DNA of 64,000 nucleotides, taken from assembly GCF_050920415.1 (NCBI RefSeq), contig NZ_CP169309.1, one strand, 5' to 3'. The notes beneath the pieces are model-generated. The model did not search any database and was not told the origin of the DNA. It was given only the letters and a program-made list of their open reading frames with translations. A program made the position numbers and the translations under genes. The DNA comes from Escherichia coli. Lineage in GTDB: Bacteria > Pseudomonadota > Gammaproteobacteria > Enterobacterales > Enterobacteriaceae. Below, piece by piece: positions 42,258 to 42,648 of this stretch. How positions within the stretch are numbered: position 1 is the first letter of the stretch; every line of letters begins with the position of its first letter.

Positions 42258-42373
42258 AGGGGCTTCATCCGAATTGCGCCATTGTTGCAATGGCGGTTTT
42301 TATTGTTTTCACGACAGTAACCGCACCTACACTGCCATGACATTGCTCGCTCCTATGTGTAACAAATAACCAC

Positions 42374-42387
42374 ACTGTGAATGTTGT
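42374..42387. promoter_or_regulatory. FNR-like site in the nrfA/acs divergent control region
   Basis: TTGTC-TTTA-ATCAA, one mismatch from TTGAT-N4-ATCAA, about 120 bp upstream of the nrfA ATG. Confidence 0.35.
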
Positions 42388-42648
42388 CTTTAATCAATTG
42401 TAAGTGCATGTAAAATACCACTTTAGAGTTAGTCAGTATTTTCCTCTTTTTCAATAGCATGCATAACTGCATGTTCCTCAAAGAATTAATCAACTTTTGT
42501 TGGTGGCCTTCAAAAATTACCCTGCCGTTTATTTGCACAATTCTACTTTTGCGTGATCTGTCGCCCAAATACTAAACAAAACTGCCAATACCCCTACATT
42601 TAACGCTTATGCCACATATTATTAACATCCTACAAGGAGAACAAAAGC

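Follow-up and report, generated by a model that had tools for sequence, protein, structure and literature searches.

The nrfA and acs genes of the Escherichia coli strain studied here are transcribed divergently, and the DNA between them is bounded exactly by the ATG of nrfA (42257, minus strand; ORF 40821–42257) and the ATG of acs (42649, plus strand), all coordinates being those of the window, the whole 64 000-nucleotide stretch of DNA that was analysed. The nrfA gene is followed by nrfB, nrfC and nrfD, and acs (42649–44607, plus strand) by yjcH and actP.

42258–42648, no strand: nrfA–acs intergenic spacer, 391 bp, G+C content 38.6%.

A sequence-only reading of this DNA had placed a divergent control region in the same interval. 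Its coordinates correspond exactly to the gap between the two genes, but the length that it gave, 390 bp, is to be replaced by 391 bp; the identity and divergent orientation of the flanking genes were borne out by the open reading frames and by comparison with K-12, and the several A/T tracts that it noticed amount to ten runs of at least 6 bp, in a spacer with a G+C content of 38.6% compared with 52.8% for the whole window. Aligned with the corresponding sequence of K-12 MG1655, the spacer is collinear and differs by six substitutions and a 1 bp indel (about 98% identity). It is 100% identical to that of E. coli MFDS1022581 and 95–99% identical to 5407 other records, and is found at an identity of at least 90% in about 5410–5413 of 5426 complete E. 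coli genomes. The K-12 nrfA/acs region, studied by Busby, Cole, Wolfe, Browning and Beatty between 1994 and 2017, has the same flanking genes in the same orientation, and its promoters pnrf, acsP1 and acsP2 have been mapped (PMC5434802, PMC2759082). Given that the spacer is flanked by nrfA and acs and is nearly identical to that of K-12, and that the published positions (PMC5434802, PMC2759082, PMC3531196, PMC2763269) map onto the window without conflict, 42258–42648 is almost certainly the E. coli nrfA/acs divergent control region, a compact hub with three promoters. The hub, with its published regulator sites intact, is already known, as the sequence-only reading had also maintained. Sequence identity, the positions of the sites and their conservation are established directly for the source strain; the binding and regulation described below would apply to it by extension from the experiments in K-12. 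Sites were scanned for as IUPAC consensus sequences with mismatch limits, using shuffled sequences or the whole window as background, and conservation was assessed in an alignment of 25 sequences from Escherichia, Salmonella, Citrobacter and Intestinirhabdus.

Four anchors published for K-12 pnrf, namely the FNR site at −41.5, the NarL/NarP site at −74.5, the G of the extended −10 element at −14 and the guanine of a GGA motif at +102, in codon 3 of nrfA (PMC5434802), all agree on the position of the start in the window, which is therefore placed at 42349 on the minus strand. The resulting 5′ untranslated region of nrfA is 92 nt long in the window and 93 nt long in K-12, the latter value agreeing with the description of a construct spanning −93 to +24 as containing the 'entire 5′ UTR' (PMC4666370). 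The following elements belong to pnrf.

42349, minus strand: pnrf transcription start (+1), placed by orthology to K-12 through the alignment.
42356–42364, minus strand: pnrf extended −10 element TGtTACACA, read directly, of the K-12 type with A at −7.
42357–42371, plus strand: Fis-consensus match GTGTAACAAATAACC, one mismatch, centred at pnrf −15 and corresponding to Fis I.
42384–42397, plus strand: FNR site TTGTCTTTAATCAA, centred at pnrf −41.5 and also overlapping the acsP1 −35 region.
42400–42416, no strand: region adjoining the FNR site with IHF I and the presumed NsrR target.
42402–42412, minus strand: NsrR half-site-like sequence TACATGCACTT, two mismatches, centred at pnrf −58.
42416–42431, plus strand: NarL/NarP 7-2-7 site TACCACT-TT-AGAGTTA (TACCACTTTAGAGTTA), two mismatches, centred at pnrf −74.5.

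The FNR-like TTGTC-N4-ATCAA motif that had been noticed by eye is present as TTGTC-TTTA-ATCAA at 42384–42397 and coincides with the FNR site that has been published for pnrf at −41.5 (PMC5434802); more generally, the comparison with mapped K-12 sites that had been proposed along with it places consensus matches at the centres of the published FNR, NarL/NarP and proximal CRP sites. A single match to the FNR consensus with two mismatches proves nothing on its own, 47 such matches being found in the 64 kb compared with 29.3 ± 5.9 in shuffled sequences. The match is taken as real since its centre falls exactly 41.5 bp upstream of the orthologous pnrf start and it is nearly invariant, with eight of the 25 aligned sequences differing at one base of the degenerate half-site and the remaining positions unchanged. 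The same caution extends to the other regulators: judged by consensus alone, matches for FNR, CRP and Fis occur at or near chance frequency, and by pattern alone neither the FNR-like motif nor a TACCCCT heptamer on the acs side is clearly above chance. The NarL/NarP site at 42416–42431 is the only 7-2-7 match with at most two mismatches in the 64 kb, and is identical in 24 of the 25 sequences, that of Intestinirhabdus differing at two bases. The TGTAACAAA block of the extended −10 element is likewise nearly invariant.

The binding sites of the nucleoid-associated proteins are less readily located. A search of the spacer for the IHF consensus WATCAANNNNTTR with at most one mismatch gave no match, and the IHF sites are not placeable from the sequence; the positions used for IHF I–III, for Fis II and III, for the Fis and IHF sites of acsP2 and for the NsrR site are presumptive, and Fis I is reported to be centred at pnrf −15 (Browning 2005). 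A generic σ70 promoter scan of the spacer returned no sites, an expected and uninformative result given that the three promoters have weak −35 elements or are activator-dependent. In K-12, Fis I overlaps the −10 element of pnrf, and IHF I–III are also present (PMC5434802). A single base of the conserved core differs in Salmonella and most Citrobacter, in which GTGCATG, the E. coli version of the presumed NsrR target and the one kept in the window, has become GTGTATG. The NsrR target of Salmonella has reportedly been inactivated (Browning 2010), and this change, as read from the alignment, would fit that account.

FNR binding and FNR-dependent transcription have been shown for K-12 and for six pathogen alleles (PMC5434802), and in the window an FNR consensus-like inverted repeat is centred at −41.5 of the orthology-placed start, which is the layout of a class II promoter. 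By analogy with K-12, pnrf would fire leftwards from 42349 as a class II promoter that depends on FNR and has an extended −10 element, being activated in the absence of oxygen by FNR bound at 42384–42397 (−41.5). In the presence of nitrite or nitrate, NarL or NarP bound at 42416–42431 (−74.5) would increase pnrf expression through displacement of IHF from the adjacent IHF I, whilst Fis bound over the −10 element would shut the promoter off in rich medium.

On the opposite strand, the promoter sequences of acsP1 and acsP2 have been reported, transcription beginning 224 and 20 nt, respectively, ahead of the acs ATG and the latter start having been determined by 5′ RACE (PMC2759082), and the corresponding elements in the window are as follows.

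42425, plus strand: acsP1 start, 224 nt upstream of the acs ATG, with a candidate −10 element TAAAAT at 42411–42416.
About 42499–42514, plus strand: CRP II, match centred at acsP2 −122.5, with a conserved right half TCAAA and a weak left half.
42524–42538, plus strand: second Fis-consensus match, centred at acsP2 −98.
42552–42567, plus strand: CRP I CGTGATCTGTCGCCCA, consensus match centred at acsP2 −69.5.
42563–42577, plus strand: Fis-consensus match, centred at acsP2 −59.
42617–42629, plus strand: acsP2 −10 element TATTAT (42617–42622) and start C (42629), 20 nt before the acs ATG.

Published work assigns to acsP2 two sites for activation by CRP, of which the proximal is at −69.5, together with three Fis and three IHF sites (PMC3531196), and places an A at −93 from the acs ATG within the first CRP site (PMC2763269). 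In the window this A is 42556 and lies within CGTGA. The weak left half of CRP II is equally weak in K-12, and the centre of this site is reported to be at acsP2 −122.5 (Beatty 2003). With CRP sites at −69.5 and −122.5 and a start 20 nt before the acs ATG, the arrangement is that of a class III promoter. Within the alignment, TGCGTGATCTG in CRP I is invariant, ACATATTATTAACAT at the acsP2 core is nearly so and CAAATACTAAACAAAAC at the Fis-like site of acsP2 is conserved. The main acs promoter would be acsP2, starting at 42629 and activated by CRP at −69.5 and −122.5, an activation that Fis and IHF would counteract. The other promoter, acsP1, has been described as a weak divergent promoter that is silenced by FNR (PMC5434802), and binding of FNR to its site in the spacer would likewise silence rightward transcription from acsP1 in the source strain.

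Several elements that lie within 42258–42648 had gone unmentioned in the sequence-only reading, namely CRP I, CRP II, the Fis-like sites, the three transcription starts and the transcribed nrfA leader.

The distribution of the arrangement was followed in a genome scan with NrfA, which yielded 34 loci. Divergent acs and nrfA genes are found in Escherichia, Salmonella, Citrobacter and Intestinirhabdus, and in the same scan acs did not adjoin nrfA in Trabulsiella, an Enterobacter sp., Entomohabitans or Serratia. Across the 25 aligned sequences, the FNR site, the IHF I/NsrR region and the NarL/NarP site together form a segment of approximately 50 bp that is almost unchanged, and further nearly invariant blocks comprise the extended −10 element, the right half of CRP II, CRP I with its flanks, and the acsP2 core with the acs leader. 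Variable DNA separates the NarL/NarP site from the conserved ATAACTGCATGTT block; in this stretch Salmonella, Citrobacter and Intestinirhabdus carry extra sequence, opposite which the Escherichia rows show a 37-column gap. An upstream insertion at Salmonella pnrf has been reported (PMC5434802), with which the extra sequence upstream of the NarL/NarP site in the Salmonella rows agrees. The pnrf regions of EHEC O157:H7 and Salmonella Typhimurium (Godfrey et al. 2017, PMC5434802) have the same overall architecture as the window, and natural divergence clusters near −10, +1 and the leader here as it does in those variants. In contrast to the O157:H7 allele, whose improved −10 element leads to FNR-independent expression, the window has TACACA with A at −7, and the upstream insertion of Salmonella and Citrobacter (37 alignment columns) is missing from it.

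Part of the conserved core of the spacer also contains a short annotated reading frame.

42353–42409, minus strand: counterpart of ytcB (b4821), 18 codons, product MHLQLIKDNIHSVVICYT, peptide identical to that of K-12.

The presence of this frame raises the question of whether 42353–42409 is conserved for encoding YtcB rather than for its regulator sites. The K-12 RefSeq record annotates ytcB (b4821, 18 amino acids) at the equivalent position, the identical peptide is encoded in the window and the 18-codon frame is open in most relatives; yet 13 of 24 sequences, those of Salmonella and most Citrobacter, have ATA where the ATG start codon should be, and the frame, which occupies −60 to −4 of pnrf, lies entirely before the one nrf start that is known and so cannot be part of the pnrf transcript. 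Moreover, the most conserved stretch coincides with the FNR site and the extended −10 element, and the codons between them (42370–42383) vary freely, including in the amino acids that they specify. A literature search for ytcB retrieved only papers on Bacillus. Conservation of the segment is better explained by DNA-binding sites than by YtcB, and selection for the peptide as its cause appears very unlikely.

A comparable question concerns the heptamer on the acs side of the spacer, which the sequence-only reading had pointed out, giving it no function.

42589–42595, plus strand: TACCCCT heptamer, about 37 bp upstream of the acsP2 start (−40 to −34) and, relative to pnrf, at −240 to −246.

As a perfect match to the NarL heptamer consensus TACYYMT, retained in five of six Escherichia sequences and so placed (−40 to −34 of acsP2) that a protein bound to it would stand in the way of RNA polymerase, TACCCCT could be imagined to be a working NarL site, exerting distant nitrate and nitrite control on pnrf or repressing acsP2 over its −35 region. 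Such a role must nevertheless be considered extremely improbable. The window contains 25 TACYYMT heptamers compared with 25.4 expected by chance, and TACCCCT is without a partner heptamer in the 7-2-7 layout, of which 42416–42431 is the sole instance. It also lies outside the −209 to +131 pnrf fragment (pnrf53) that is sufficient for anaerobic and nitrite induction (PMC5434802). Outside Escherichia, the T-A of the heptamer is replaced, giving AAAGCCCCT in Citrobacter and AAGACCCT in Salmonella, and CCCCTACATTTAAC is conserved; loss of the T-A with retention of CCCCTACATTTAAC indicates a constraint on the upstream promoter sequence of acsP2 and not on a NarL heptamer. TACCCCT is best read as part of the −35 region or upstream promoter sequence of acsP2, its likeness to the NarL consensus being due to chance, and the mapped NarL/NarP target is 42416–42431 rather than this heptamer. 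The cross-genus footprint amounts to a clean map of constrained bases, in which a perfect-looking NarL heptamer turns out to be a mere chance match.

The source strain has its own alleles within this framework. At pnrf −2 (42351 T; G to A in the nrf direction) it carries a base found in three of the 5426 genomes, and at +15 (42335 C; A to G) one that occurs in the source strain only (1/5426). Positions −91 and −106 of pnrf also differ from K-12, and CRP II contains the variants 42503 G and 42506 G, a haplotype present in 3/5426 genomes. A T-run is one base shorter than in K-12, the T4 allele being common (1083/5426). None of the differences between the window and K-12 affects a consensus-critical base of a mapped site. 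The binding sites for FNR and NarL/NarP are the same as in K-12, as is CRP I, and identity extends to the extended −10 element, the core of acsP2 and the two GGA (CsrA) motifs. The change at +15 converts the K-12 mini-ORF AUG-UCA-UGA into an upstream frame of 29 codons whose end overlaps the nrfA start in the sequence AUGA. This frame was considered as a functional element and rejected, as it requires a base present in 1/5426 genomes and begins with an AUG without a Shine–Dalgarno sequence; it is treated as accidental because the +15 variant is unique to the source strain.

The leftmost part of the spacer, from 42349 to 42258, is transcribed and forms the 92 nt nrfA leader, and the role of this long conserved leader has been called 'unclear' (PMC5434802, Godfrey et al. 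2017). Consensus folding of 24 sequences with RNAalifold gave two stem-loops, which are listed here together with the two GGA motifs at the nrfA start.

42309–42340, minus strand: leader stem-loop 1, pnrf +10 to +41, 11 bp stem.
42277–42295, minus strand: leader stem-loop 2, CGCCAUUG-caa-CAAUGGCG, 8 bp.
42246–42270, minus strand: region with two GGA motifs, 42268–42270 in the leader and 42248–42250 in codons 3–4 of nrfA.

The pattern of substitution distinguishes the two strands. For stem-loop 1, 97.9% of the cells of the alignment are paired when read as sense RNA compared with 74.1% when read as antisense, the values for stem-loop 2 being 98.9% and 90.9%; over both stems and 22 distinct sequences, 98.3% of 415 cells are paired in the sense RNA compared with 81.2% in the antisense. 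The leader stems contain 73 G·U wobble cells, each corresponding to a C·A mismatch on the opposite strand, and two pairs show compensatory double changes. In 500 shuffles, neither the pairing nor the covariation score of the real alignment was attained, and only 25–65% pairing resulted when the 3′ partners were slid along. An Rfam scan of 41800–43100 with E ≤ 1 returned only a spurious match to a eukaryotic lncRNA (20.3 bits compared with a gathering score of 40). That the hairpin at 42277–42295 followed by GTTTTTATTGTTTT might instead be a plus-strand intrinsic terminator, serving for instance a transcript antisense to nrfA, has a minimal likelihood. A terminator scan does report a plus-strand match at 42277–42310 comprising both a hairpin (8 bp stem, five G–C pairs) and a T-rich tail, but no plus-strand gene or known RNA ends there, the only plus-strand sequence upstream is antisense to nrfA, and the T-run is polymorphic in length (T4 in 1083/5426 genomes). 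Moreover, stem pairing is kept in the 22 distinct sequences by G·U wobbles, which only the RNA in the nrfA sense can form, so that the apparent terminator is stem-loop 2 as seen from the opposite strand.

Both GGA motifs are invariant in the 24 sequences, and the second of them, equivalent to 42248–42250, has been shown experimentally to be a CsrA site in K-12 (PMC5434802). CsrA, through the GGA motifs, and probably RyhB would act post-transcriptionally on the nrfA leader. The structure of the leader and the possible action of RyhB upon it constitute the only fresh leads in the region, and the latter was evaluated through a short segment at the 5′ end.

42339–42348, minus strand: GAGCAAUGUC, candidate RyhB pairing site, nrfA mRNA +2 to +11.

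RyhB is an sRNA of iron starvation, and GAGCAAUGUC is a perfect 10 nt complement of its nucleotides 37–46 (RyhB sequence from MG1655). Complements of 10 nt to nucleotides 30–68 of RyhB occur only twice in the 128 kb made up by both strands of the window. Cofolding with RNAcofold brings RyhB onto +2 to +10 (ΔΔG of −11.6 kcal/mol for K-12), and the changes found within the 10-mer across genera (A to G, A to G and C to U) all keep G·U pairing, the last pair being lost in Salmonella arizonae. The energies of the RyhB–leader duplex computed with RNAduplex, −23.9 kcal/mol for K-12 and −28.6 kcal/mol for the window, compare with a background mean of −19.2 kcal/mol (s.d. 4.1), and 1.8% of the background windows reach the value of the window; since the duplex energy is unexceptional, the argument for the site is carried by the exact 10-mer, its conservation and published fusion data. 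Indeed, nrfA is a validated target of RyhB, with a change of 1.95 in Ribo-seq and −0.03 in RNA-seq, and an nrfA fusion with a constitutive promoter and only −93 to +24 of nrfA is repressed by RyhB (PMC4666370); nrfABCDEF has also been named as a candidate anaerobic target (PMC4676285). The complementarity found here is contiguous, involves the single-stranded core of RyhB and lies within the mRNA segment that confers control. A literature search retrieved no mapped RyhB pairing site on nrfA, and a 2021 review does not list nrfA under RyhB. On these grounds, we infer a candidate RyhB pairing site at +2 to +11 of the leader.

The proposed interaction has both parallels and differences with known targets of this sRNA. 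RyhB pairs with the translation start region of sodB, and it controls fur through the upstream ORF uof. The segment of the nrfA leader from +3 to +12, AGCAAUGUCA, is identical to AGCAAUGUCA of the sodB start region and, as in sodB, includes an AUG, which in K-12 opens the mini-ORF of two codons. In contrast to sodB, the candidate site in nrfA is 85 nt upstream of the start codon and is not accompanied by a Shine–Dalgarno sequence. At this distance from the nrfA start, direct occlusion of the ribosome-binding site is impossible and the mechanism would have to be indirect, possibly through a standby or mini-ORF effect, through remodelling of stem-loop 1 or through loading of Hfq on the A-rich linker between the stem-loops. 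Taken as a whole, the nrfA leader is perhaps a structured post-transcriptional module, a reading that we put forward tentatively, in which two stem-loops selected in the sense RNA are separated by an A-rich (ARN)n linker and a free 5′ end, GAGCAAUGUC, serves as the RyhB pairing site that represses nrfA translation.

The nrfA/acs spacer is a textbook example of one nucleoprotein hub shared by two metabolic programmes that oppose each other, nitrite respiration under anaerobic conditions and acetate scavenging under aerobic ones, and confirmation of its published architecture in the present strain adds nothing new to that picture. The analysis of the leader, on the other hand, offers a cheaply testable answer to what the conserved 93 nt leader does and where RyhB acts. 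If it is true, the availability of iron would be linked directly to the synthesis of a pentahaem enzyme.

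The nrfA leader, a 5′UTR whose role has been described as unclear (PMC5434802), carries several features that are listed here together with those lying further upstream of nrfA.

42277–42340, minus strand: two stem-loops of the nrfA 5′UTR
42296–42308, minus strand: A-rich (ARN)n linker between both stem-loops
42339–42348, minus strand: GAGCAAUGUC, nrfA mRNA +2 to +11
42338–42347, minus strand: AGCAAUGUCA, nrfA mRNA +3 to +12
42254–42343, minus strand: 29-codon upstream open reading frame (uORF)
42353–42409, minus strand: counterpart of the small ORF ytcB (b4821)
42463–42475, about −114 to −126 relative to the nrfA promoter pnrf: conserved block ATAACTGCATGTT

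Both stem-loops are kept across four genera, and their positions are paired at 98.3% in the sense RNA versus 81.2% in the antisense RNA. At the very 5′ end of the transcript, all 10 nt of GAGCAAUGUC are complementary to the core of the small RNA RyhB, and the overlapping 10-mer AGCAAUGUCA is identical to the RyhB site in the start region of sodB. RyhB has nrfA among its validated targets (PMC4666370); no mapped RyhB pairing site on nrfA was found in the literature accessible to search.

The 391 bp spacer between nrfA and acs contains three rare alleles. The C on the plus strand at 42335 (pnrf +15) was found in the source strain only among 5426 complete E. coli genomes, while the allele at 42351 (pnrf −2) and the CRP II haplotype at 42503/42506 each occur in three of the 5426. 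The change at +15 abolishes the stop codon of the K-12 mini-ORF AUG-UCA-UGA and thereby gives rise to the 29-codon uORF, which is private to this strain and whose end overlaps the nrfA start in the sequence AUGA. Since its AUG is not preceded by a Shine–Dalgarno sequence, the uORF is probably accidental. The counterpart of ytcB, an ORF annotated in K-12, lies entirely upstream of the pnrf start, overlapping the −10 element and the FNR site, and its start codon is ATA in place of ATG in 13 of 24 related sequences.

Upstream of the NarL/NarP site, block ATAACTGCATGTT includes an NsrR half-site-like sequence, AACATGCAGTT, with one mismatch; in relatives, around 37 bp of additional variable DNA separates the block from the NarL/NarP site. 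The block was matched to no particular IHF, Fis or NsrR site from the literature.

Outside the spacer, putative CRP sites matching the 16 bp consensus perfectly occur at 7260–7275 (TGTGATCAACTTCACA) and 54862–54877 (TGTGATATAGTTCACA), and candidate FNR sites with one mismatch to the consensus at 2381–2394 (TGGATTAAAATCAA) and 13150–13163 (TTGATCGTCAACAA). The genuine nrf FNR site fits the consensus more poorly than either of the latter.

On the acs side, the Shine–Dalgarno sequence AAGGAG (42634–42639, acsP2 +6 to +11) is unchanged in all 25 aligned sequences. It encloses A(N)GGA, which by sequence would be a motif of the CsrA-binding type.

Within 2.5 kb upstream of nrfA, acs was absent in Trabulsiella, an Enterobacter sp., Entomohabitans and Serratia; the divergent acs–nrfA adjacency was observed only in Escherichia, Salmonella, Citrobacter and Intestinirhabdus among the loci of the NrfA genome scan.
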